In this document: positions 450-15,325 of the stretch, piece by piece
How the letters are laid out: every line of letters starts with the position of its first letter
Position numbering within the stretch: the first letter of the stretch is position 1
Origin: Candidatus Altarchaeum sp.
GTDB taxonomy: Archaea > Altiarchaeota > Altiarchaeia > Altiarchaeales > Altiarchaeaceae
NCBI GenBank assembly: GCA_018260615.1
Contig: JAGWDQ010000142.1
Location: forward strand, 1 to 18,590
Reading direction: 5' to 3'
DNA length: 18,590 nucleotides
Notes under the pieces: generated by a model
The model's input: only the letters and a program-made list of their open reading frames with translations
Databases searched by the model: none
What the model was told of the DNA's origin: nothing
Made by a program: the position numbers and the translations under genes

Positions 450-596
450 GTAACTACTCACCATCCCAAAAAATTACAGGTAAATTTTTTGATTTTTACG
501 CTCACTTCGTTCGTGTATTTTCAAAACTCTGCGTTTTGAAAATTGTGTTTTTTTGAAAGTTTTACAGGTAAATTTTGTTAACCCGTGAGTAGTTAC
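450..596. mobile_element. MITE copy 1 (12-bp TIR GTAACTACTCAC) with a nested ~48-bp REP-like insertion
   Basis: GTAACTACTCAC at 450-461 and GTGAGTAGTTAC at 585-596. It aligns to the reverse complement of 3695-3795 except for an extra segment (about 498-545) containing CTCACTTCGTTCG and the hairpin at 517-543. Confidence 0.8.
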
Positions 597-700
597 TTAA
601 TTTTTACATAAAATTTTCCACCCTGAGTCTTAATTCAAAATATTTAAAAATAATTATAATTGTAATCTAAATTGTAATTCAAAATATAACAGGGATAAAA

Positions 701-2504: not shown

Positions 2505-2683
2505 AAAAATTGCTAAAATTTTGCCACTCATAAATTTACCTTTAAGAAATAATTTGAAAAGAAGGCAGGCATTCAAAACGCAAACATTATTTTATAAGAT
2601 ATTTAGCATTAACTTAACAATTAATAAATAGTAATAAATTTTTCAAAATGCAAAATTTGAGTTTTGTATTTATTATTTGCACC

Positions 2684-3000
2684 AAGGAATCTCATGCAGT
2701 GCCGGTGGATATTAATCGTGCATTCCGTCCATCGTTAATAAAAAGCCTGCCTAAGGCACCTCTAAAACTTAGAGATGAGGATGTACCGTGATGTCAAGTG
2801 ATAAAAAAGATAAATTTATAAGATTTGCCAAAAAGATGAATACACTAACCAGTTTGGAAGTTGAAGCTTGGATATGCTGTCAAAAGAGCATGTACGCAAC
2901 AACTGCGGATATCATGTCAAATTGGAGTTATATATGTAATGCAGATATAATGTCAAATCGGGAGGATATACGCAACAACTGCGGATATAACATGTTATCC
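2684..3000 (+). other. Platform A: conserved leader, tandem repeats and attI-like site ending GTTATCC (2994-3000)
   Basis: Homologous to 3941-4202 (identical 20-mer TCCATCGTTAATAAAAAGCC and identical hairpin CTCTAA-aac-TTAGAG). Perfect 20-bp direct repeat TACGCAACAACTGCGGATAT at 2893-2912 and 2969-2988. It ends CGGATATA-acat-GTTAT immediately before cassette 1. Confidence 0.6.
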
Positions 3001-3028
3001 ACCATAGCCAGTATATGGAGGAAAAAAT

Positions 3029-3508
3029 ATGGGCCGAAAACATACATTTATGGATAAAGAATTTGGACGCATGGATTATGACCCTGACGATCATGGGAGT
3101 TTTGAACAAGGAATGGTATTTGTCGCTATGCCTTTTCATGGTGACGAAATGAGAGAAGTTTACTCTGCAATTAAGGATGAATGCTCAAAATTAGGGCTCA
3201 GAACAAAAAGGGTGGACGAAAATGTGGGGGCAGGTTTTATCATAAGAGAGATTACTAATCTCATTGAACGAGCCGAGTTTATCATATTTGACCTCACTCA
3301 TGAACGCCCAAATGTGTACTATGAACTTGGATTTGCTCATGGAGTGGGGAATGAGCCATTAGATATTTTATTGGTAGCAAAAGAGGGGACTACAATTCAC
3401 TTCGATATTGCCCCTATGAGAATACAGTTTTATAAGACAACAGAACATCTCCGTTCCATAGTTGCATCAAGCCTTAAAGAGATGATTCGAAAGACAAGGG
3501 GAGAGTGA
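3029..3508 (+). CDS. Nucleoside 2-deoxyribosyltransferase-like / TIR-like domain protein (cassette 1, 2995-3599)
   Basis: Motifs VFVAMPF, RVDE, AEFIIFDLT and RPNVYYELGFAHG. GGAGG SD at 3017-3021. The stop lies 2 nt before the attC flank. Confidence 0.75.
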   Translation: MGRKHTFMDKEFGRMDYDPDDHGSFEQGMVFVAMPFHGDEMREVYSAIKDECSKLGLRTKRVDENVGAGFIIREITNLIERAEFIIFDLTHERPNVYYELGFAHGVGNEPLDILLVAKEGTTIHFDIAPMRIQFYKTTEHLRSIVASSLKEMIRKTRGE

Positions 3509-3519
3509 ATGGCTACGGC

Positions 3520-3605
3520 GTATAACAAAGTGTATCCGCTACGCTTCGCTTGCCTTTCAGGAAATTTTGCTACGCAAAACTTCAGATACACTTGTTCCGT
3601 TATCC
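3520..3605 (+). other. attC-type recombination site 1 (86 bp)
   Basis: GTATAAC-A-AAGTGTATCCG ... CAGATACACTT-GTTCC-GTTATCC, with an internal TTTTGC/GCAAAA stem. The left flank 3511-3526 matches the reverse complement of 2994-3009 at 13/16. Confidence 0.8.
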
Positions 3606-3694
3606 AAAATTCCAAACTTGATCAAAACGCAAAATTTCAGTCCTTAATATATTTTGGAAATTCAACAATAGGAAGTTCCATATTATCTTTTTAT

Positions 3695-3795
3695 GTAACT
3701 ACTCACGGGGTAGGAAATTTACCTGTGAAAATTTCAAAAAAAATACAAAAAATCAAAAATTTACCAATAATTTTTTAGGATGGGTGAGTAGTTAC
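3695..3795. mobile_element. MITE copy 2 (101 bp, TIR GTAACTACTCAC), inverted relative to copy 1
   Basis: GTAACTACTCAC at 3695-3706 and GTGAGTAGTTAC at 3784-3795. The internal sequence is homologous to 450-596. Confidence 0.8.
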
Positions 3796-3940
3796 CTTTT
3801 TATTTAATATTTAATGTTATCTTACCCAATTAATAAAAAGAAATAAAATTTTCAAAACGCAAAACTTCAGTCATATTTATTTACAAAGTTTGGAAATTTT
3901 TATTCATATTTATATTTTGTGAAAATGAACTCACAGTCCG

Positions 3941-4202
3941 AAGGAATCAAATGCGGGACCGGTGGAAAATACTCGTGCATCCCTTCCATCGTTAATAAAA
4001 AGCCCACTCAGGCATCTCTAAAACTTAGAGGAGAGAATGTACTGCGATGTCAAACGTTAAAAATAAAATTATAAAATTCATCCAAAATGAGTATATACGC
4101 AACAACTACGGATTTCATGCCAAATTGGAGAGATATACGCAATGCAGATATCATGCCAAATCGGAAGGATATACGCAGTACTGCGTATATAACTTGTTAT
4201 AT
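3941..4202 (+). other. Platform B: second copy of the leader, tandem repeats and attI-like site ending GTTATAT (4196-4202)
   Basis: Homologous to 2684-3000. Three TATACGCA-initiated units start at 4094, 4134 and 4170. Perfect 22-bp palindrome ATATACGCAGTACTGCGTATAT at 4169-4190. It ends CGTATATA-actt-GTTAT. Confidence 0.6.
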
Positions 4203-4263
4203 GAAATTCCGAACCCCTTGAAAAAAGGCAAAACATTTTAATAAAATAGGAGAATAATACATT

Positions 4264-4725
4264 ATGATGAAAAACAATCAAAAAATCTTGATTGGAATTG
4301 GAATATTAGCATTAATTGCATTATTGGCATCCCTGCTTCTCTTTGTGATGCCTGCGGGGACTGATCGGACACCCCAAGATACTAATGACATATATATACC
4401 TGTTCGGGGCGAAGGGGTGGGAAGCGTTGGAAATAATACAGGTGAGCAAAGATTTTCTTACTGGATTTCATTATGTAACGGAAAAAATGACGAGATATTT
4501 GTTAGTTGGATTGAACCAATTTATTCTAATGAATTGCTCAAAAAATCGCAAACAAAAAACCACAAGGTCATTGTAGAAAAAACCATACTTCCCAATAATT
4601 GCACTAAAATCAATGGGGAACTCATTTTTGATTCAAAAGGATTATCAAAAACCGAGATAAATAGTTGGGATCCTTACATTACAGGTTTCAGAATATCTTA
4701 CGAAAAAATAATACAACTTGATTAA
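4264..4725 (+). CDS. Hypothetical membrane-anchored/exported protein (cassette 3, 4197-4885)
   Basis: Basic N-terminus followed by the hydrophobic helix ILIGIGILALIALLASLLLFVM. AGGAGA SD at 4248-4253. The remainder is a soluble, beta-rich domain. Confidence 0.75.
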   Translation: MMKNNQKILIGIGILALIALLASLLLFVMPAGTDRTPQDTNDIYIPVRGEGVGSVGNNTGEQRFSYWISLCNGKNDEIFVSWIEPIYSNELLKKSQTKNHKVIVEKTILPNNCTKINGELIFDSKGLSKTEINSWDPYITGFRISYEKIIQLD

Positions 4726-4803
4726 CAATACATTCAAGATAATTTAGACGGGGTTCGGAACTCTGAGGTCGCTCCTTGCGTCGCTCCCTTACTCTAACGA
4801 GTC

Positions 4804-4891
4804 ATATAACACGGGCTATACGGCTTCACTTCGTTACGCCCAAATTTGCTCCCTATGGTCGCAAACTTCGTATAGCCCGATTCCGTTATCG
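4804..4891 (+). other. attC-type recombination site 2 (88 bp)
   Basis: ATATAAC-A-CGGGCTATACG ... CGTATAGCCCG-ATTCC-GTTATCG. Flank GGGGTTCGGAA (4750-4760) plus TCATATAAC (4802-4810) complements the cassette start GTTATATGAAATTCCGAACCCC (4196-4217). Confidence 0.85.
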
Positions 4892-5052
4892 GAAATTTTT
4901 GAGGGCACTTGAAACGATGGACAATCTCTTGTTTGAGATATTTGAGAGGACAACATTTAGAATTTAAATTTTTATTATGTTAATTCTAACTTTGGATCAT
5001 ACAATTTTTTAATAGGTATTTGATTATTATTTTAATTTAATTACTATATAAG

Positions 5053-6825
5053 ATGGAAGAAGAAAGAAAAGAAATGAAGACAGATAAATTGTCGCGGTTA
5101 CAATTTTCATCTCAGATTACAAATAATATTGAAAATTCATTTGCAATTACTACTATTATACAAGGTCGTATTACTAAAATAAAAGGTGCTAATGTAACTG
5201 TTAAGACTCATGCTGGAGAATCATATCTCAGTTTTAATGCTTCATCCGAAATTAAAAAACTTGTAAAAATTGATAATCAAGGCTTTCATTATGAGAAAAT
5301 ATCCCACTACGATTTAATCAATCATATCTGCATATTTAAAATTGTTATCTATAATTCACCAGCTGATATAAAACCACGCCATCATACAATTTTAAGATTA
5401 GTTAGCTTTGGAATCAATAACGAACTTGTTAAAAATCCATATTTTCATTGTGTCTCTGCTGATTGGCTTGCATCTTTTTGGTTGCCTACTATGGACATAG
5501 AATTTGGAGGTGTTTATGGGAATATTTTAAATGGCGGTGTACAGATTATGGGACCAGATAGAGATGACAAATGGTCATATCTTACATCAAGATCCCTTGC
5601 AGGTTTTTCTTTTGGTTTTCAACTTACTGGAAAATCAGAATATTTAAATGCTGCAATTCATACTCTGGAGTTTTTGAAAAAATCAAAGGATGAAATAAAA
5701 GGTAATATAATATTTCGTTCTCGTCAGCTGCGCAACGGAAATCACCATCAGCTTGCAAGTTCTTTATATAATATTTTTGTTCATGAGTATTGTTTAACCG
5801 GCTTATTAAGATACTATGCAGCAACAAGTGACAATGAGACATATAATTTTATAATAAAAGCATTAGAATCCTTAATGTTATTTTATGATTCTAAATATGG
5901 TGGTTTTTATGATGCAATAGATAGAAACACACTATTACCGATACCTAAAGTCACTGATACTAAATCATTTACATCATCAGCTGATGTATTAGCTGCAACT
6001 GTTATATTCGCAAAAGAATTGAATATTCATACTAATAAATTTAATCCAACTTCTGTTGCTATTGAAATTTGTAAGTTGATTGTTGATCATCATTTAATTG
6101 AAGATAATCCCTTTATTATTGAATCTTTTAATTCTGATTGGACTTTAAATACTTCGCCCTGGCGAAATGAATATGCAACCGCAGATTTGGCAGGCAGTTG
6201 TGGAGCCACAGCGAAAGTTGCCAGAGTTTTAGCAGTATGCTTACCATTTTTACCAAGGGAATTACAAAATAAGACTAAACAAGCAATAAAGAATATTCTT
6301 GATAACCTTATAATTGTTGGGGCATGGGATCCTTTGAGGGGCGGCGTACATGATTTTATGATAAGATATTGGAAAAGAAATCAATTAGGCGAATTTGTTT
6401 TTCATAGTGATTATGTTTGGTGGTCTCAAGAACAATTATGTGTTACGGCATATTTAGGATACTTGCTTTTTAACGATAATCACTATCTTGACATTGCAAG
6501 ATCAATAGTTAATTTCTGGTTGGGTTGTTTTATTTCTATACATGGGGGTGTTCATGACACGATTGATCATGTTGGAAATCCAGTAAGTGCCCAGATGGGG
6601 TGTTGGTTAAAGAATTCTTATCATGAACTCGAATTTGCATATTATATTGCTATTTTTGAAGCAATCATAAATAAAACATCTATAACCCTCTATTTTGCAC
6701 CTTCATATACTGGAAATTATTTTGAATCTTTACCCGATATTGGCATTATAAAATGGGATATTGTTGAGAACATAACTCTACCAAATGGAACAAAATCAGT
6801 TACTTTTAAACCAATTAAACTATAA
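5053..6825 (+). CDS. Long-form AGE-family epimerase/isomerase homolog (N-terminal beta domain plus (alpha/alpha)6 barrel), divergent
   Basis: Motifs TSRSLAGFSFGFQLTGKSEYL, YGGFYDAID, WDPLRGGVHD, VWWSQEQ and SYHELE. The start may be the second Met (MKTDK). Confidence 0.7.
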   Translation: MEEERKEMKTDKLSRLQFSSQITNNIENSFAITTIIQGRITKIKGANVTVKTHAGESYLSFNASSEIKKLVKIDNQGFHYEKISHYDLINHICIFKIVIYNSPADIKPRHHTILRLVSFGINNELVKNPYFHCVSADWLASFWLPTMDIEFGGVYGNILNGGVQIMGPDRDDKWSYLTSRSLAGFSFGFQLTGKSEYLNAAIHTLEFLKKSKDEIKGNIIFRSRQLRNGNHHQLASSLYNIFVHEYCLTGLLRYYAATSDNETYNFIIKALESLMLFYDSKYGGFYDAIDRNTLLPIPKVTDTKSFTSSADVLAATVIFAKELNIHTNKFNPTSVAIEICKLIVDHHLIEDNPFIIESFNSDWTLNTSPWRNEYATADLAGSCGATAKVARVLAVCLPFLPRELQNKTKQAIKNILDNLIIVGAWDPLRGGVHDFMIRYWKRNQLGEFVFHSDYVWWSQEQLCVTAYLGYLLFNDNHYLDIARSIVNFWLGCFISIHGGVHDTIDHVGNPVSAQMGCWLKNSYHELEFAYYIAIFEAIINKTSITLYFAPSYTGNYFESLPDIGIIKWDIVENITLPNGTKSVTFKPIKL

Positions 6826-6841
6826 AATAATTTAAGACAAT

Positions 6842-8140
6842 ATGACAAAATCAATTCAAAAGTCCACATCATTTTTAGAACAAATATCTAAAATAGTACC
6901 TGGTGGTGCCAGTTCAAATGTCAGAACTCGCAATTCAATTGCTGTGTCACATGGTAAAGGTGCAGAATTATTTGATTTAGATGGGAATAGGTATATTGAT
7001 TATATGTTAGGTTTGGGCCCTGTTATATTAGGGCATGGTAATGATACTGTAAACCAGTTTGTTTCACAATCAATTAAAAAGGGAACATCGTTTGCATTTA
7101 CAACCGAGAGTGAATATCGTGTTTGTAAGAAAATAGTTGAAATCTCACCATCTGTTGAAATGGTTAGACTATGTAATTCCGGTTCTGAAGCTGCTATCAC
7201 TGCGTTTAGAATTGCACGAACCTTTACAGGGGGGAGTATTGCAATTAAAATTCAAGGGGATTATAATGGTAATTTTGATATTTTGGCACATGATGTGCCG
7301 GGAGTTGACGGCGATAATTTAGATAATGGTCCATTTCCTATTGGAACGGGTTTTTATAAAGATGTTGAAAAGTCGATAATTACAATTCCTTTTAATGATA
7401 TTGAAATATTAGAAAAAATATTATCAACTAAACAAAGCGAAATTGCAGCAGTTTTTATGGAACCAATTCTTGGCAATGTTGCAGCTATAATGCCAAATAC
7501 TGATTATTTGGCATCTGTAAGAGAACTGTGTACACACTATGGTGTTATTCTTGTATTTGATGAAGTAAAAACTGGTTTTAGAGTAAGTCTTCAAGGGGCA
7601 CAGGGACTTTTTGGTATAAATAGCGATTTAACTATGTATGGTAAGGCTATGGCTAATGGTTTTCCTATTGCAGCAATTGGTGGAAAAAAAGAATTAATGG
7701 AACTTGTAGGACCTGATAAGGTATTTCATTGTGGTACTTATTACGGTAATCTTGTCTCTACATCTGCTGCTGAAGTAGTTTTATCAATTCTATCTCAGGC
7801 AGATTATAGTTCACTATCTAAAAAAGGTGAAAGATTAGCTCAAGGGATTTGTGATATACTAAGGCAATTTGGTATTCCTTCTCAATGGAATGGGGTAGGA
7901 ACAATGTTTGGAATTACAATTGGAGAATCTAAACCAATTGATTATAAAACCTGGTGGAAAAGAACAGACCGAGAATTGTGGATTAGTATCTCAGAAATAA
8001 TGAGAAATTTAGGTATATTAAGTGATGATTTTGTTGGAGTTTTCTTTTTATCATTCGATCATACCGAAGAACACATTGATCAAACACTTAATATTTGTGA
8101 AAAAGCAATATCAATATATAAAAAGAATATGTGCAGATGA
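6842..8140 (+). CDS. Class III PLP-dependent aminotransferase, glutamate-1-semialdehyde aminomutase-like
   Basis: Motifs PGGASSNVR, YIDYMLGLGPVILGH, CNSGSEA, MEPILGN, FDEVKTGFR, YGKAMANG (PLP lysine) and GTYYGN. Not called hemL because of divergent motifs and context. Confidence 0.85.
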   Translation: MTKSIQKSTSFLEQISKIVPGGASSNVRTRNSIAVSHGKGAELFDLDGNRYIDYMLGLGPVILGHGNDTVNQFVSQSIKKGTSFAFTTESEYRVCKKIVEISPSVEMVRLCNSGSEAAITAFRIARTFTGGSIAIKIQGDYNGNFDILAHDVPGVDGDNLDNGPFPIGTGFYKDVEKSIITIPFNDIEILEKILSTKQSEIAAVFMEPILGNVAAIMPNTDYLASVRELCTHYGVILVFDEVKTGFRVSLQGAQGLFGINSDLTMYGKAMANGFPIAAIGGKKELMELVGPDKVFHCGTYYGNLVSTSAAEVVLSILSQADYSSLSKKGERLAQGICDILRQFGIPSQWNGVGTMFGITIGESKPIDYKTWWKRTDRELWISISEIMRNLGILSDDFVGVFFLSFDHTEEHIDQTLNICEKAISIYKKNMCR

Positions 8141-9000
8141 AAATTAACATAAAAGACATAGATGGAGATTTGAATAGTTTTATCACTTTATTGCGTAATA
8201 ATGATTTAAATAATATTGTTATTGTTGGTGGTGCGGTTCGTGATATAATTTTAAATCGACCATATAAAGATATTGATATAGCTATTCGATTAAATATTCC
8301 TTCACCATCATTAATTGATTTATGTTCGCCAATTAATAAATATGAAATATTACCGATAATCCAGAAAGAATTATTTAAATTAGATAATATACTAAACTGT
8401 AAAATTGATGATTTTATCGAAAAAGGGTCTGTTCCTTTTGGCAATACAACGATCGATATACTTGGTTTAGTGGTGGTTAAAGATAAAAGAGAACAATTAT
8501 TTCCCGATATTTTTATTGATAATAATAACCAAATCTTTGGAGCATATTCTGAACTTACAATTAATCGTTTAGCGCTTGATTTTGAGGGTAATATCTGGCC
8601 AACTGATTATATTGAACATATTTATAATAATATCGGGTATCTTACTAATGGAGTTTTAGGCATTGATTTTTATAGAATTTTACGAATTTTTAAAACATGT
8701 GAATTGCTGAATACCAAATTAGATTATAATGTAAGTATTCAAATAACTGATTATCTAAAAAAATTAAGAAATCCGAATCGGTTTCTTGATGAAATAAAAG
8801 ATAATAGGGTTTTACCAATGTTGAATTCACTTTTTCCAAATTTAAATTTTTCATTTGATATTTTCAATATAGATTTTATTATTAAAAAATTGGAAGAGAA
8901 ACTAAAAATTTATTCAATGAAAGAGAATCTGCCCTCTTCAGAGAGCAGTATCAAGCAGTACATAACCATGGATAAAAGCATTGCAGAAAGTCACCTATAA
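8137..9000 (+). CDS. Class II (CCA-adding/poly(A) polymerase head-like) nucleotidyltransferase, divergent
   Basis: Motifs VGGAVRD...KDIDI, TTIDI, ELTINRLALD and DFYRILR. The start is placed at ATG 8137, in an ATGA overlap with the aminotransferase stop. Confidence 0.75.
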   Translation: MKINIKDIDGDLNSFITLLRNNDLNNIVIVGGAVRDIILNRPYKDIDIAIRLNIPSPSLIDLCSPINKYEILPIIQKELFKLDNILNCKIDDFIEKGSVPFGNTTIDILGLVVVKDKREQLFPDIFIDNNNQIFGAYSELTINRLALDFEGNIWPTDYIEHIYNNIGYLTNGVLGIDFYRILRIFKTCELLNTKLDYNVSIQITDYLKKLRNPNRFLDEIKDNRVLPMLNSLFPNLNFSFDIFNIDFIIKKLEEKLKIYSMKENLPSSESSIKQYITMDKSIAESHL

Positions 9001-9029
9001 CCAAAAATATACAAAATCATACTAAAAAA

Positions 9030-9160
9030 CTGTCGGCTTTAGCCGACAGATATTTATATTTACGAAAAATTTGGTGGAGACCACAAAAATTAATTTATTG
9101 AAATTTATTACATTATTGGGGCAATTCATCTGCGGGCTGAAGCCCGCAGCGTTCTTGCCC
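9030..9160. mobile_element. Pair of IS200/IS605-type end hairpins (possible non-autonomous PATE)
   Basis: CTGTCGGCT-tt-AGCCGACAG at 9030-9049. GGGCAATTCAT-CTGCGGGC-tgaa-GCCCGCAG-cgttc-TTGCCC at 9119-9160, a nested-stem form typical of IS605 ends. No tnpA or tnpB between them. Confidence 0.55.
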
Positions 9161-9185
9161 ATTTGAAGTAAAATTAGAGGATATT

Positions 9186-10328
9186 ATGAAAGTAACAATG
9201 TTGGCAAAGGAATACCCACCCAACGTTTATGGTGGAGCAGGCGTCCATTTAAGACATTTGGCTCATGAGCTCTCAAGAATAATGGACGTCGAAGTCAAAT
9301 GTTTTGGTAACCAGAATATTAAGGAAAAACATCTCAAAGTCAAGGGGTATCAGCCATGTGATAGACTGAAGGAATGCAACGATCCACATTTTTATCTACC
9401 CTTTAGCACGATCTCTATAAACCTTTTGATGGCGCGGGACATGATCGATACAGATATTATCCACTCACATACATGGTACGCTTCATTTGCAGGTTTTCTA
9501 GCTAAGAGATTATATAAATTGCCCTTAGTAGTTACTTGTCACAGCATAGAGCCTTCACGTCCATGGAAGGAAGAACAACTTGGAAGAGCATATCAACTAA
9601 GCAGTTGGTTAGAAAAGACCGCTATTGAATCAGCGGATAGGGTGATCGCTGTTTCAAAAAATGTTAAGGAGGATATTCTGAAGCATTTCAACATTACAGA
9701 GGATCGTATAGTAGTGATATACAATGGAATAGACTTGAACAAATGGAAGGAAACTCTTACTGATTTCACAAAAAAGGAGTATGGTATTGATCACGACTAC
9801 ATCCTGTTTGTTGGTCGCACAACAAGACAGAAGGGGATGATTTATCTGATAGAAGCAGCTGACTATATTGAAAAAGACGTACAAATCGTTATCTGTACCA
9901 GCGCGCCGGATACTAAAGAGGTTGAGGAAGAGATGATGCAAAAAATGATACAGAAGAAAAATATTATATGGATAAACAAACTACTCAGAGAAGAACAATA
10001 TATTGAGCTATATAGTGGAGCGGTAGTATTTGTGTGTCCATCAATTTACGAACCATTTGGTATTGTAAATATAGAGGCTATGGCATGTAAAACTCCTATC
10101 GTGGCATCTGCTGTTGGTGGTATAAAGGAAGTCGTAATTCATGAAGAAACGGGCATGCTGGTGGAACCGGCAAAACCAAAGCAACTCGCCTACTACATCA
10201 ATCATCTGCTTAGGAATCGAGAATTGGCGAGGAAACTCGGAGAAAACGGCAGAAAGAGAGTTAAGGAACATTTTAGTTGGACATCTATCGCTCAGCAGAC
10301 AAAGAATCTATACGAGAGTATATTATAG
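9186..10328 (+). CDS. glgA: GT4 glycosyltransferase, GlgA/GlgM (Corynebacterium-type glycogen / maltose-1-phosphate synthase) family
   Basis: Motifs MKVTMLAKEYPPNVYGGAGVH, HSHTWYA, HSIEPSRPWKEEQLG, FVGRTTRQKG and CPSIYEPFGIVNIEAMAC. Confidence 0.85.
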   Translation: MKVTMLAKEYPPNVYGGAGVHLRHLAHELSRIMDVEVKCFGNQNIKEKHLKVKGYQPCDRLKECNDPHFYLPFSTISINLLMARDMIDTDIIHSHTWYASFAGFLAKRLYKLPLVVTCHSIEPSRPWKEEQLGRAYQLSSWLEKTAIESADRVIAVSKNVKEDILKHFNITEDRIVVIYNGIDLNKWKETLTDFTKKEYGIDHDYILFVGRTTRQKGMIYLIEAADYIEKDVQIVICTSAPDTKEVEEEMMQKMIQKKNIIWINKLLREEQYIELYSGAVVFVCPSIYEPFGIVNIEAMACKTPIVASAVGGIKEVVIHEETGMLVEPAKPKQLAYYINHLLRNRELARKLGENGRKRVKEHFSWTSIAQQTKNLYESIL

Positions 10329-10480
10329 AACATGGGACTGGACTTAAATCTGAACATTTAGGCAAACTATTGCAAACTTTTCTGGAAAAGAGTTCAGCCC
10401 AGAGGAAGTAAGAAAGATAAAAAGGTTAGTGCCCTCAAAAACTCTCGCTCCACTTCATTCCGCTCGGTGCTATCACACTC

Positions 10481-10564
10481 CGATAACAGAGTATATCCGC
10501 TTACGCCCTTTGGGAAATTGCTCCGCTGCGCTCCGCAACTTCGGATATACTCGTTCCGTTATCT
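10481..10564 (+). other. attC-type recombination site 3 (84 bp)
   Basis: CGATAAC-A-GAGTATATCCG ... CGGATATACTC-GTTCC-GTTATCT. Flank AGTGCCCTCAAAAA (10428-10441) plus TCCGATAAC (10479-10487) complements the cassette start at 4885-4909. Confidence 0.85.
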
Positions 10565-10579
10565 GCCATTGCAACAAAA

Positions 10580-10848
10580 TGAGCATGACTTACGCCCAAA
10601 AAACGACCTATTGAGCGGAAACCTAAACCTTCAAGATATAAAACTAATGCGTCACGTTTTAATTTAAAGGGTTTGCCAACTTGTTAAACTGTAAAATGAT
10701 ATTGACAGTCTTTACATAAATATCTTTGCTTTTGTTTAACAATTCCATCCTTGCGAATATTTTTACTTTTACAGTTTGGGCAATATTCCATCTTAAATAA
10801 TTTAATGCTGCACAAAAATTATGAAAACTATACTAAATTAACAATGCC
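10580..10848 (-). pseudogene. IS1-family transposase 5' remnant (zinc ribbon plus HTH) with left end; nonsense mutation and truncation
   Basis: Manual translation from ATG 10791 gives MEYCPNCKSKNIRKDGIVKQKQRYLCKDCQYHFTV*QVGKPFKLKRDALVLYLEGLGFRSIGRFLGVSH, with the stop at 10684-10686. The candidate end GGCATTG (10848-10842) fits the IS1 GGnnnTG consensus. Confidence 0.8.
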
Positions 10849-10859
10849 AATTATTCTCT

Positions 10860-11408
10860 TTACTCTCTTATTATCTTAAAATTTCCCAAATCAATAATTG
10901 TTGAGGGTGTTTTGTATTTACATTCCCCTGTTAAAATCAAATCAACAGCATTCTTTATTCTTTCATCAATTTCTTCAAAATTTTTTGCAGGCGGCTTACT
11001 GCTTATGTTTGCACTTGTTGTAATTATAGGATATTTCTCTGTCAAGACCCTAACTTTCTCATCATTAATGATTCGTATCCCCACAACATCTTTATTGGCA
11101 GTGATAATGTCAGAAATTTTATCTGTTTTCGGAACAATGAAAGTATATGGCTTGTCCGAGTGCTGCTTTATAAATTTTTCCATCTCATCATCTAATTTCA
11201 CAAATTCCTTTGCTTTGTTTAAATCATGAATTGCCACAGAAAGCGGTTTTATAAAATCCCTCTTCTTTATTTCAAAGATTCGTTTTATGCTTTCGGGAAA
11301 ATTTATCCTGCATCCGATTCCATAAACAGTATCTGTCGGATAACAGATAATTTTTCCTTCGTCCAGAAATTTTATTGCTAAATTTAAATCACAGGTTATT
11401 ATTGTCAT
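10860..11408 (-). CDS. tsaC: L-threonylcarbamoyladenylate synthase (TsaC/YrdC domain only, 182 aa)
   Basis: Motifs CYPTDTVYGIG, IFEIKKR...KPL, VGIRI, TTSANISSKP and PSTIID. Confidence 0.92.
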   Translation of the reverse strand: MTIITCDLNLAIKFLDEGKIICYPTDTVYGIGCRINFPESIKRIFEIKKRDFIKPLSVAIHDLNKAKEFVKLDDEMEKFIKQHSDKPYTFIVPKTDKISDIITANKDVVGIRIINDEKVRVLTEKYPIITTSANISSKPPAKNFEEIDERIKNAVDLILTGECKYKTPSTIIDLGNFKIIRE

Positions 11409-13342: not shown

Positions 13343-13890
13343 TCAAATTTAACAAATAGTGTCTGTTGAAATATGGACTTCTGAGAATGTGTTTCGGATT
13401 TCAGACATTCTAAAGATTTGGCAGAATGTGTCTGCCGAATTATAAATTTGCCAGACAGTGTCCGGCATTTTTTATCTTTAGATTTCCGAGACAGTGTCTC
13501 GGATTTTCCAGACATTGCATGGAATTTCTGATATTTGGCAGACAGTGTCTGCCAAATTGGAAAATTAAGATAAAAAGCCCACATATTCCTTAAATTTCTC
13601 TCGGAAAACCCTTTACTAAATTTAGCAGTCATATCTGCCGAAAGTTTTATAAGTAATTTTTCTCCATATTCAGCCCGCATTTTACCTTTCTGTTCAAACT
13701 CAACAACCTCTCTTCCGATTTCCCAATATTGCCTCACTTTGTTCGGAAATTTACTCACTTTGTTTGTAAATGCCAAAACCCGTGCCTTGTTAATCTCTCT
13801 TACTACTTTGCTTCTTGCTTCGGTTAAAATTTCTGCAATCCTGTCAATTAAACATCCATAATTTTTTGTAGTTATTTCTTTTTTTATCAT
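13339..13890 (-). pseudogene. Truncated YhcG/DUF1016 N-terminal domain gene (no PD-(D/E)XK domain) with repeat expansion
   Basis: YWEIGREVVEFEQKG..RAEYG..L..LS.D...F.KGFS.RNL..M..FY..FPIWQTLSAK is followed by about 7 QTLSAK-like units and then a stop overlapping the top6B start. Confidence 0.75.
13350..13557. repeat. Tandem palindromic coding repeats (about 7 units)
   Basis: Examples are ATTTGGCAGAC-agt-GTCTGCCAAAT (13533-13557) and TCCGAGAC-agt-GTCTCGGA (13485-13503). They encode QTLSAK, ETLSRK, RTLSGK, QTHSAK and similar units. Confidence 0.75.
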
Positions 13891-14974: not shown

Positions 14975-15325
14975 TCCGAATAATTGCTTACTATCCGAAT
15001 AATTGCTTACTATTTTCAAAAACGAAGTTTTTGAAAATCTCCGAACGATATCAAAAATGCTTCAAGCATTTTCAAATCATAGAGATTTGAAAATCTCCGA
15101 ACGAAGTGAGGTGATTTTTGAATATCCCAAAAACCTTGAAGGTTTTTACGATAGTGAGGTGATTGGCAGGACTTATGATTTTTGTTATTTACGAACGAAG
15201 TGAGTAAATATCCGAACGAAGTGAGGTTATTTTCAAACTTGTTTGAAAATATACTGAAAACTATAAGTTTTCAATCTTTAAAAATGCTTGTAGCATTTTT
15301 AAATGAGAGCGAAGCGAACTTATTT
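14975..15325. repeat. Large mosaic palindromic repeat cluster (REP/BIME-like)
   Basis: A perfect 19-bp tandem duplication (14975-15012) is followed by about 7 AT-rich hairpins, e.g. TTTTCAAAAAC-gaa-GTTTTTGAAAA and TTTAAAAATGCT-tgt-AGCATTTTTAAA. They are linked by CGAACGAAGTGAG motifs near 15098, 15192 and 15212. Confidence 0.8.

Follow-up and report, generated by a model that had tools for sequence, protein, structure and literature searches.

The window analysed here, the 18.6-kb contig C142 (18,590 nt) of a metagenome-assembled genome (MAG) of the groundwater archaeon Candidatus Altarchaeum sp. (2.23 Mb, 148 contigs, 33% G+C, 87% complete), carries between the housekeeping genes hom and tsaC a series of protein-coding genes punctuated by hairpins that resemble the attC recombination sites of integrons. 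Genes and hairpins make up two short arrays with three cassettes in all (one and two, respectively), each array preceded by an attI-like site and a conserved leader. No recombinase gene is found in the 18.6 kb; the attI-like sites are present without one. The hom gene of the window is 93% identical to that of Altarchaeum GA_1_1 (G001) and 91% identical to that of Candidatus Altarchaeum CG2_30_32_3053 (G003). The features of the locus are listed below, with cassettes numbered as in an earlier note on this DNA and open reading frames abbreviated as ORFs.

1455-2504, + strand: hom, left neighbour of the insertion
2523-10858 (start approximate), + strand: 8.3-kb insertion relative to G003, from blastn of the G003 sequence L061 against the window
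2674-2812, + strand: leader copy 1 (nhmmer 148 bits), no recombinase gene behind it
2882-3005, + strand: attI-like site 1, three tandem palindrome-bearing repeats of ~37 nt and a core (repeat families D1 and D15)
2995-3599, + strand: cassette 1, 605 bp, with ORF 3029-3508 and hp1; ends complementary at 13/16
3522-3603, + strand: hairpin hp1, ATAAC to GTTAT, following the ORF that ends at 3508; 82 bits in the covariance model
3600-3641, + strand: array 1 terminus, conserved; blastn matches at C70:38947 and C70:34937
3694-3797, no strand: element resembling a miniature inverted-repeat transposable element (MITE), with terminal inverted repeats (I2, I4, I8), between the two arrays
3931-4068, + strand: leader copy 2 (nhmmer 140 bits), no recombinase gene behind it
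4085-4207, + strand: attI-like site 2, triple repeat and core
4197-4885, + strand: cassette 3, 689 bp, with ORF 4264-4725 and hp2; cognate score 6/6 + 11
4806-4889, + strand: hairpin hp2, ATAAC to GTTAT, following the ORF that ends at 4725
4886-10558, + strand: cassette 4, 5673 bp, four genes and hp3; cognate score 6/6 + 14, the highest class seen
5053-6825, + strand: epimerase-like gene of cassette 4 (Pfam/NCBIfam)
6842-8140, + strand: class-III aminotransferase gene of cassette 4 (Pfam/NCBIfam)
8131-9000, + strand: nucleotidyltransferase-like gene of cassette 4 (Pfam/NCBIfam)
9186-10328, + strand: GT4 glycogen-synthase-like gene of cassette 4 (Pfam/NCBIfam, glgA_Coryne)
10483-10562, + strand: hairpin hp3, ATAAC to GTTAT, following the ORF that ends at 10328
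10559-10858, + strand: trailing 300 bp with the right-arm motif at its start; no ORF and no hairpin
10860-11408, - strand: tsaC/Sua5, right neighbour of the insertion

The three hairpins measure 80-84 bp from ATAAC to GTTAT (88-92 bp with the conserved flanks) and are spaced by 1.3 kb (hp1-hp2) and 5.7 kb (hp2-hp3). All three have the ATAAC and GTTAT cores, a variable stem of 11 bp and a conserved inner arm, and in each of them a bulge of 5 nt, likewise conserved, precedes the 3' core. A covariance model was built from these copies and then run on the MAG and its relatives. It recovers 19 hairpins in the MAG including the three of the window, the 16 further copies at E-values between 4e-13 and 2e-3. 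Some copies are solitary (C99, C105 and C53); co-oriented clusters are found on C36 (n = 4), C70 (n = 3), C38 (n = 2), C69 (n = 2) and C142. The model also matches 13 of 40 relatives, as well as bacterial contigs of WOR-3, where the hairpins lie directly downstream of a recombinase homologue. Structure statistics were obtained from 33 copies drawn from Archaea and Bacteria. In this alignment, which was fitted to the model and thereby favours the pairing score somewhat, 95.3% of hairpin cells are paired, against 28-39% with the partners slid. Compensatory changes occur at 10 of the 11 L-stem pairs, and the covariation score of 0.453 compares with 0.109 for shuffles; the same covariation can be read directly from the L'' and L' sequences set side by side. 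The structure of the hairpins is under selection, and it is as structure, in the form of an R''-L''...L'-R' imperfect palindrome with AAC and GTT cores, that the hallmark of attC is conserved here.

The borders of the cassettes fall at G|TT, and the 5' end of a cassette pairs with the R'' flank of its own hairpin, as in integrons. In cassette 1, positions 2995-3009 are complementary to 3511-3526 (13/16). In cassette 3, the segments 4197-4204 and 4207-4217 are complementary to 4802-4810 and 4750-4760, the second pair forming an outer stem that encloses an asymmetric loop of 41 nt (4761-4801). In cassette 4, the corresponding segments 4886-4893 and 4896-4909 are complementary to 10479-10487 and 10428-10441 (6/6 + 14/14), and the outer stem encloses a 37-nt loop (10442-10478). 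When every site of the genome is considered, 14 cognate pairs of cassette start and end outscore 428 non-cognate ones (Mann-Whitney p = 7.6e-5). Cassettes 3 and 4 of the window score 17 and 20, with the 99th percentile of non-cognate pairs at 14. Cassette-specific end pairing is also seen on C69, C36 and C81 and in the WOR-3 contigs. The perfect pairing of 6 + 14 nt at the ends of cassette 4 argues that this cassette last moved as one unit.

The earlier note had inferred a real array of four cassettes, citing three co-oriented ATAAC...GTTAT hairpins behind + strand ORFs and complementary ends in cassettes 1, 3 and 4. The hairpins lie where it placed them, with the span measured at 80-84 bp, and direct reading confirms the three complementarities. 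The G|TT borders and the cassette-specific end pairing bear out the array itself, and the genome-wide search that the note proposed finds the hairpins clustered and co-oriented, with end complementarity stronger in cognate than in non-cognate pairs. The count of four cassettes is right for cassettes 1, 3 and 4 only.

The interval 3600-4196, which the note had counted as cassette 2, was rejected as a cassette: it is made up of the array 1 terminus (3600-3641), the MITE-like element (3694-3797) and a second platform remnant. The terminus sequence recurs behind the final hairpin of other arrays (C70:34853, C70:38865 and C53), and probably derives from an empty attI-like site, whose right half it would originally have been. 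The MITE-like element, about 105 bp long, has dozens of copies over many contigs of the MAG, with an inverted copy at window 450-600, and is not part of the cassette system. The trailing sequence 10559-10858 would be what is left of a cassette or, alternatively, the old flank of an attI site.

Upstream of both arrays lies a module of about 370 bp, repeated at 2618-3005 and 3827-4207, in which a leader half is followed by an attI-like half. The leader is a conserved, structured element of about 135 nt, with predicted stems and compensatory changes at three pairs. It stands directly upstream of the recombinase start codon on contig C79 of the MAG and in G003:C2. Outside the window, the copies are located at C79:1117-1254, C68:14160-14298, C70:36766-36903, C87:30225-30363 and L044:558-694. 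The leader thus occurs before the recombinase, before attI-like sites that lack a recombinase and, on C87, before an unrelated gene with no attI-like site. Outside the genus, nhmmer did not find it in G029, G030 or the WOR-3 loci. It is possibly a new cis-regulatory RNA, or else a portable promoter with its 5' untranslated region. An Rfam search of the whole window at a permissive threshold returned one sub-threshold, unrelated match, the hairpins and the leader matching no known RNA family, and a tRNA search of the window found none.

The attI-like cores of the window consist of a left arm, a central region and a right arm, at 2978-2988, 2989-2994 and 2995-3005 in site 1 (crossover G at 2994) and at 4180-4190, 4191-4196 and 4197-4207 in site 2 (crossover G at 4196). 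The genome contains nine such cores with one shared consensus. Complete platforms comprise, all in the same orientation, the leader, the recombinase gene, the attI-like site and the cassettes. In G003:C2 the leader (558-694) is followed by the recombinase (699-1757), the attI-like site (~1760-1860) and six + strand hairpins. Contig C38 starts with the 3' end of a recombinase gene, the attI-like site (the same element as in the window) and two cassettes, and C79 carries the leader and the recombinase. The attI-like core lies downstream of the recombinase gene, in the position of a primary site, in G003:C2, C38 and the WOR-3 loci L070 and L071. In the window, the leader is twice joined directly to the attI-like site, the recombinase gene being absent between them. 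These junctions suggest that the gene was deleted from both platforms, a reading supported by a pseudogenised copy of the recombinase in G002 and by the apparent last ~20 recombinase codons, a weak match, behind the leader at C70:36766.

The two arrays occupy a site that is empty in a congener. In G003, hom and tsaC are convergent neighbours with their 3' ends 19 nt apart. In blastn of L061 against the window, L061 positions 6039-7067 correspond to window 2522-1493 and positions 3569-6041 to window 13281-10859. Both flanks align at 84-87%, and window positions ~2523-10858 have no counterpart in G003. Because the two genes are adjacent in this congener, the segment is an insertion, and the position between hom and tsaC given in the earlier note holds, with G003 as the empty site and its 19-nt spacer. 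The same interval in G001 is uninformative, as different genes follow hom and tsaC is not nearby, and gives no second empty site. Reading of the junction sequence revealed no convincing target duplication at the borders of the insertion.

One full tyrosine recombinase was found in the MAG (C79:92-1120, - strand, 342 aa). It passes the archaeal XerA model NF040815 (237.9 bits, cut-off 220) and fails the integron-integrase model TIGR02249 (207, cut-off 265), matching the latter in two pieces with model positions 180-235 skipped. Its alignment with P. abyssi XerA (4A8E) is continuous from end to end. Aligned with VchIntIA (2A3V), its residues 233-268 face residues 171-248 of IntI, so that about 42 residues are missing at the IntI-specific domain. 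This additional domain around patch III is not present in the recombinase, and the MAG, at 87% completeness, holds no IntI above the cut-off. Tests based on IntI, such as the integrase model of IntegronFinder, would probably miss the enzyme. A genome-wide search for an IntI-like recombinase thus yields a tyrosine recombinase which is XerA-like and not IntI. The note's supposition that the integrase resides elsewhere or has been lost proves right on both counts, with an intact gene on C79 and two remnants without the gene in the window.

Homologues of the recombinase are 55-65% identical between Archaea and Bacteria, and thousands of close homologues exist in metagenomes. The protein carries an extra N-terminal domain of about 75 residues (model pLDDT, the predicted local distance difference test score, 88.6). 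This domain gives a weak match to Pfam HARP (E 0.03), and the top Foldseek match of its model is the HARP domain of SMARCAL1 (4O66; E 0.018, probability 0.99). VIA-align pairs it with the N-domain of T4 UvsW (1RIF; Z 7.5, root-mean-square deviation 1.6 over 60), the damage-recognition domain of XPB (2FZ4; Z 6.6) and 4O66 (Z 4.0), where Z values below 8 fall in the range seen for common arrangements. We take the HARP domain of SMARCAL1, the XPB damage-recognition domain and the UvsW N-domain to be structure-specific DNA-binding modules. At such middling scores, the likeness of the modelled domain to HARP/SRD modules serves as a lead only. In the single-contig genome G029, a homologue without the N-terminal domain (L045:2836-3988, 44% identical) lies in divergent orientation to a hairpin with 95% identity to hp1, and the recombinase family may include more than one architecture. 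G029 also has a second, more distant Xer-like gene at 909126-909914.

Several genomes bear evidence of cassette movement. In two WOR-3 MAGs, hairpins recognised by the archaeal model come after a recombinase that is 55% identical. The two loci, L070 and L071, are 99.7-99.8% identical on both flanks, and the first cassette after the recombinase is exactly replaced between them (L070:11334-12140, 807 bp, against L071:7033-7954, 922 bp). One junction falls at G|TT within the attI-like core and the other at the G|TT of the hairpin, which makes the two loci a natural before-and-after pair for the recombination system. Within the Altarchaeum MAG, the same cassette start is found behind two distinct attI-like cores, on C5 and C120. 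A 2.27-kb cassette with a 553-aa ORF is common to G003 and G029, which belong to different families of the class (L044:5531-7783 and L046:2329-4582). It is 76.5% identical and bounded by hairpins in both genomes, amid unrelated neighbouring cassettes.

All sites of the system share the right arm that follows the crossover, G|TTATnnnnAAT. The 17 nt before the crossover comprise, in the nine attI-like cores, an 11-nt arm with the consensus ACTGCGGATAT and a 6-nt centre AAnnnG, and in 17 hairpins an 11-nt arm (the L' strand, CGnATA...) and (A/G)TTCCG. This layout matches the 11-6-11 plan of dif sites (PMC2958812). When the hairpin is folded, the L stem makes the left arm double-stranded, pairing with the cassette's own 3' flank does so for the right arm, and the centre forms a bulge of 5 nt opposite 1 nt. 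A loop of 37-45 nt, of related sequence, and an outer stem of 11-14 bp are found in addition at about half of the sites. Taken as a duplex, a hairpin site has two arms that are not inverted repeats of one another.

Among the cassette contents, the 159-aa product of ORF 3029-3508 in cassette 1 is TIR-like (PADLOC TIR effector, 1.5e-10; Pfam CAP12-PCTIR_TIR, weak), and the 153-aa product of ORF 4264-4725 in cassette 3 matched no family in a family search. For the first gene of cassette 4, a search of 60 other genomes of the class gave nothing, and its homologues at E < 1e-30 number only 11. The last gene (9186-10328) passes the model of actinobacterial-type glycogen synthase, TIGR02149 (glgA_Coryne), with 522.9 bits against a cut-off of 302.4; a search of 20 related genomes did not recover it, and it is an odd cargo for a cassette. 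The cassette system explains this strain-specific island of 8.3 kb with its TIR-like gene and sugar-modification operon.

Several repeats elsewhere in the window were also recorded. A family of perfect or near-perfect intergenic palindromes of 26-32 nt occurs at 127-158, 518-549, 15013-15044 and 15069-15100 (inverted repeats I3, I9 and I13), often adjoining a second short conserved motif. A palindrome-bearing repeat of about 30 nt is present four times within 220 bp at 13347-13566 (families D3 and D16), in the manner of an operator array, and overlaps a doubtful 183-aa ORF on the - strand. Inverted repeats of 54 nt at 13725-13778 and 15180-15233 (I1), 83% complementary and 1.4 kb apart, could delimit a mobile or invertible segment.

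We read the window as a pair of neighbouring platforms that lack the recombinase gene and belong to an integron-like system of gene capture run by a XerA-family recombinase. Together the two platforms make up the 8.3-kb insertion, and we put the probability of this reading at about 0.75. In its complete form the system consists of the structured leader, the XerA-family recombinase with its N-terminal domain, a duplex attI-like site with accessory repeats, and cassettes ending in attC-like hairpins. A circular cassette, or a single strand of one, would fold in such a way that its hairpin imitates a Xer core site. At G|TT, one strand would then be exchanged by the recombinase between the hairpin and the attI-like site or another hairpin, in the way that IntI acts on attC and XerCD on the folded site of CTX phage. 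We infer the folding of a single strand, the strand that is used, catalysis by the recombinase, and roles for its N-terminal domain and for the leader. As the recombinase gene is missing from both platforms of the window, the three cassettes are fixed there unless the C79 copy works in trans, and they are probably now driven by the leader directly.

A rival reading is that of a canonical integron remnant, a cluster of attC sites lacking an integron integrase (CALIN), with ordinary attC sites, the true IntI missing from an incomplete MAG and the XerA-like gene acting as a housekeeping dimer resolvase. The AAC...GTT cores, the hairpin, the co-orientation and the G|TT borders are all features of attC, the MAG is only 87% complete, the recombinase passes the XerA model, and CALINs are the form most commonly reported in archaeal MAGs (PMC9668308). 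We nevertheless regard such a remnant as quite improbable. The MAG yields no IntI above the cut-off. Physical linkage of the Xer-like gene to attI-like sites and arrays is seen in G003, on C38, in G030 and in two WOR-3 genomes, and the leader of this gene is fused to attI-like sites within the window itself. With a Xer-type gene linked to the sites in five genomes from two domains, a missing IntI is unlikely, and 55-65% identity of the recombinase between Archaea and Bacteria does not fit a vertically inherited XerA. The geometry appears to differ as well: a canonical attC has a roughly symmetric unpaired central spacer, and the spacer here is 1 nt against 5 nt. Still less do we favour the view that the hairpins are repetitive extragenic palindrome-like, MITE-like or terminator repeats that spread by themselves between genes that are not mobile units, a very improbable account. 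The abundance of other intergenic repeats and MITEs in this genome, the location of hairpins just after ORFs in the manner of terminators, and the solitary copies on C99, C105 and C53 would suit it. It is contradicted by the cassette-specific complementarity of ends across up to 5.6 kb, by the exact replacement of a whole cassette in near-identical genomes, by a cassette common to two families from hairpin to hairpin, and by the linkage of hairpin and recombinase in two domains; a search for the HUH Y1 transposase (PF01797) in the 87%-complete MAG gave no match.

A different question is whether the hairpin itself matters for recombination. The recombinase might move modules through duplex sites only, like the dif modules of Acinetobacter plasmids, with the hairpin incidental or serving another role. 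Every hairpin does contain a duplex 11-6-11 stretch ending in the common right arm, the recombinase is Xer-like, and XerA recombines duplex dif in vitro without partners (PMC2958812). The arms of the hairpin sites as duplex are not mutual inverted repeats, strong covariation keeps the intra-strand pairing of the L stem, and R''/R' pairing is kept cassette by cassette, which matters only if the strand folds or is extruded as a cruciform. We therefore consider recombination through duplex sites alone unlikely.

Several observations weigh against the reading of the window as platforms of a XerA-driven capture system. A length of 5.7 kb and a content of four genes make cassette 4 an atypical one, and the homologous operon on contigs L074 and L075 carries no hairpin and so provides no second context for it. 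On C79, no attI-like site is seen in the 100 nt between the recombinase gene and the contig end, and the tie of this gene to the arrays of the genome consequently rests on the overlap with C38 and on G003. Being the sole full tyrosine recombinase found in the MAG, the enzyme could also, or only, be the housekeeping XerA. In a MAG that is 87% complete, a true IntI could be unassembled. The G029 homologue lies beside hairpins without the N-terminal domain and in divergent orientation, and the architecture is therefore not uniform. Finally, no protein-level remnant of the recombinase is detectable in the window. A bolder version, which we offer only tentatively, would make the XerA-driven system a second integron lineage, either ancestral to IntI or convergent with it, in which a XerA-type enzyme acts on folded single-stranded 11-6-11 hairpins, a HARP/SRD-like junction-binding domain replaces the IntI insert, cassettes pass between Archaea and Bacteria, and a structured leader RNA absent from the databases exerts control in Altarchaeum.

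Among known systems, archaeal integrons whose IntIs carry the IntI-specific domain have been described by Ghaly et al. 2022 (PMC9668308), with no Altiarchaeota among the 75 MAGs of data S1 of that paper. A full-text search of a limited literature collection found no published description of a Xer-type cassette system. The window resembles a CALIN, defined as two or more attC sites spaced by less than 4 kb and without an integrase close by (PMC9668308), in having hairpin-bounded cassettes and no recombinase gene within the array. It differs in that hp2 and hp3 are 5.7 kb apart, beyond the 4-kb rule, in retaining leader and attI-like remnants, and in sites that are attC-like. Some of the integrase-less clusters of PMC9668308 might belong to the present hairpin family.

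Archaeal XerA resolves chromosome dimers at one dif site near the replication terminus. With XerA and dif (Cortez et al. 2010, PMC2958812; PDB 4A8E, 5HXY) the system shares an end-to-end alignable recombinase that passes NF040815, and 11-6-11 sites with arms starting TTAT. Unlike dif, its sites are many per genome and are folded hairpins arrayed between accessory genes, and its recombinase gene is linked to the sites, has the added N-terminal domain and is 55-65% identical across domains of life. The proposed use of a folded single strand as a mimic of the Xer core site recalls CTX phage and other integrative mobile elements exploiting Xer (IMEX). There, the folded single strand is integrated by one-strand exchange at a single dif, using the host XerCD; here, the recombinase and the primary site are dedicated, and gene-cassette arrays are formed.

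The logic of the system is that of integrons. In both, a tyrosine recombinase of the Xer lineage adjoins a primary site, co-oriented and mostly single-gene cassettes are each closed by an imperfect palindrome that has AAC...GTT cores, the borders are at G|TT and the 5' end of a cassette bears the outer half of its own R', sites are conserved in structure and not in sequence, and the first cassette turns over at the primary site. The recombinase differs in lacking about 42 residues at the place of the IntI-specific domain of VchIntIA (2A3V), in scoring below the integron-integrase cut-off, in its extra ~75-residue N-terminal domain, and in being co-oriented with the cassettes, with the primary site downstream of its gene; co-oriented integrases are also known from the integrons of spirochaetes. 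The sites differ in a central spacer that is asymmetric (1 nt against 5 nt) with conserved (A/G)TTCC, and in the 37-45-nt loop and 11-14-bp outer stem added in about half of them. Since the IntI domain is absent and the site geometry appears different, we do not file the system as an integron. Recombination of folded attC sites is held to require the IntI-specific domain (PMC9668308); if our reading is true, that domain is not the only solution to the task, and the system would represent a concrete intermediate between Xer/dif and IntI/attC. Surveys that search by IntI would overlook the recombinase. Its family is large, and its near-identical site types in Archaea and Bacteria bear on cross-domain gene flow in the subsurface. 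Integrons are the textbook machine of gene capture, and what is found here looks like the same logic carried out with a plain Xer-type catalytic core and dif-like sites.

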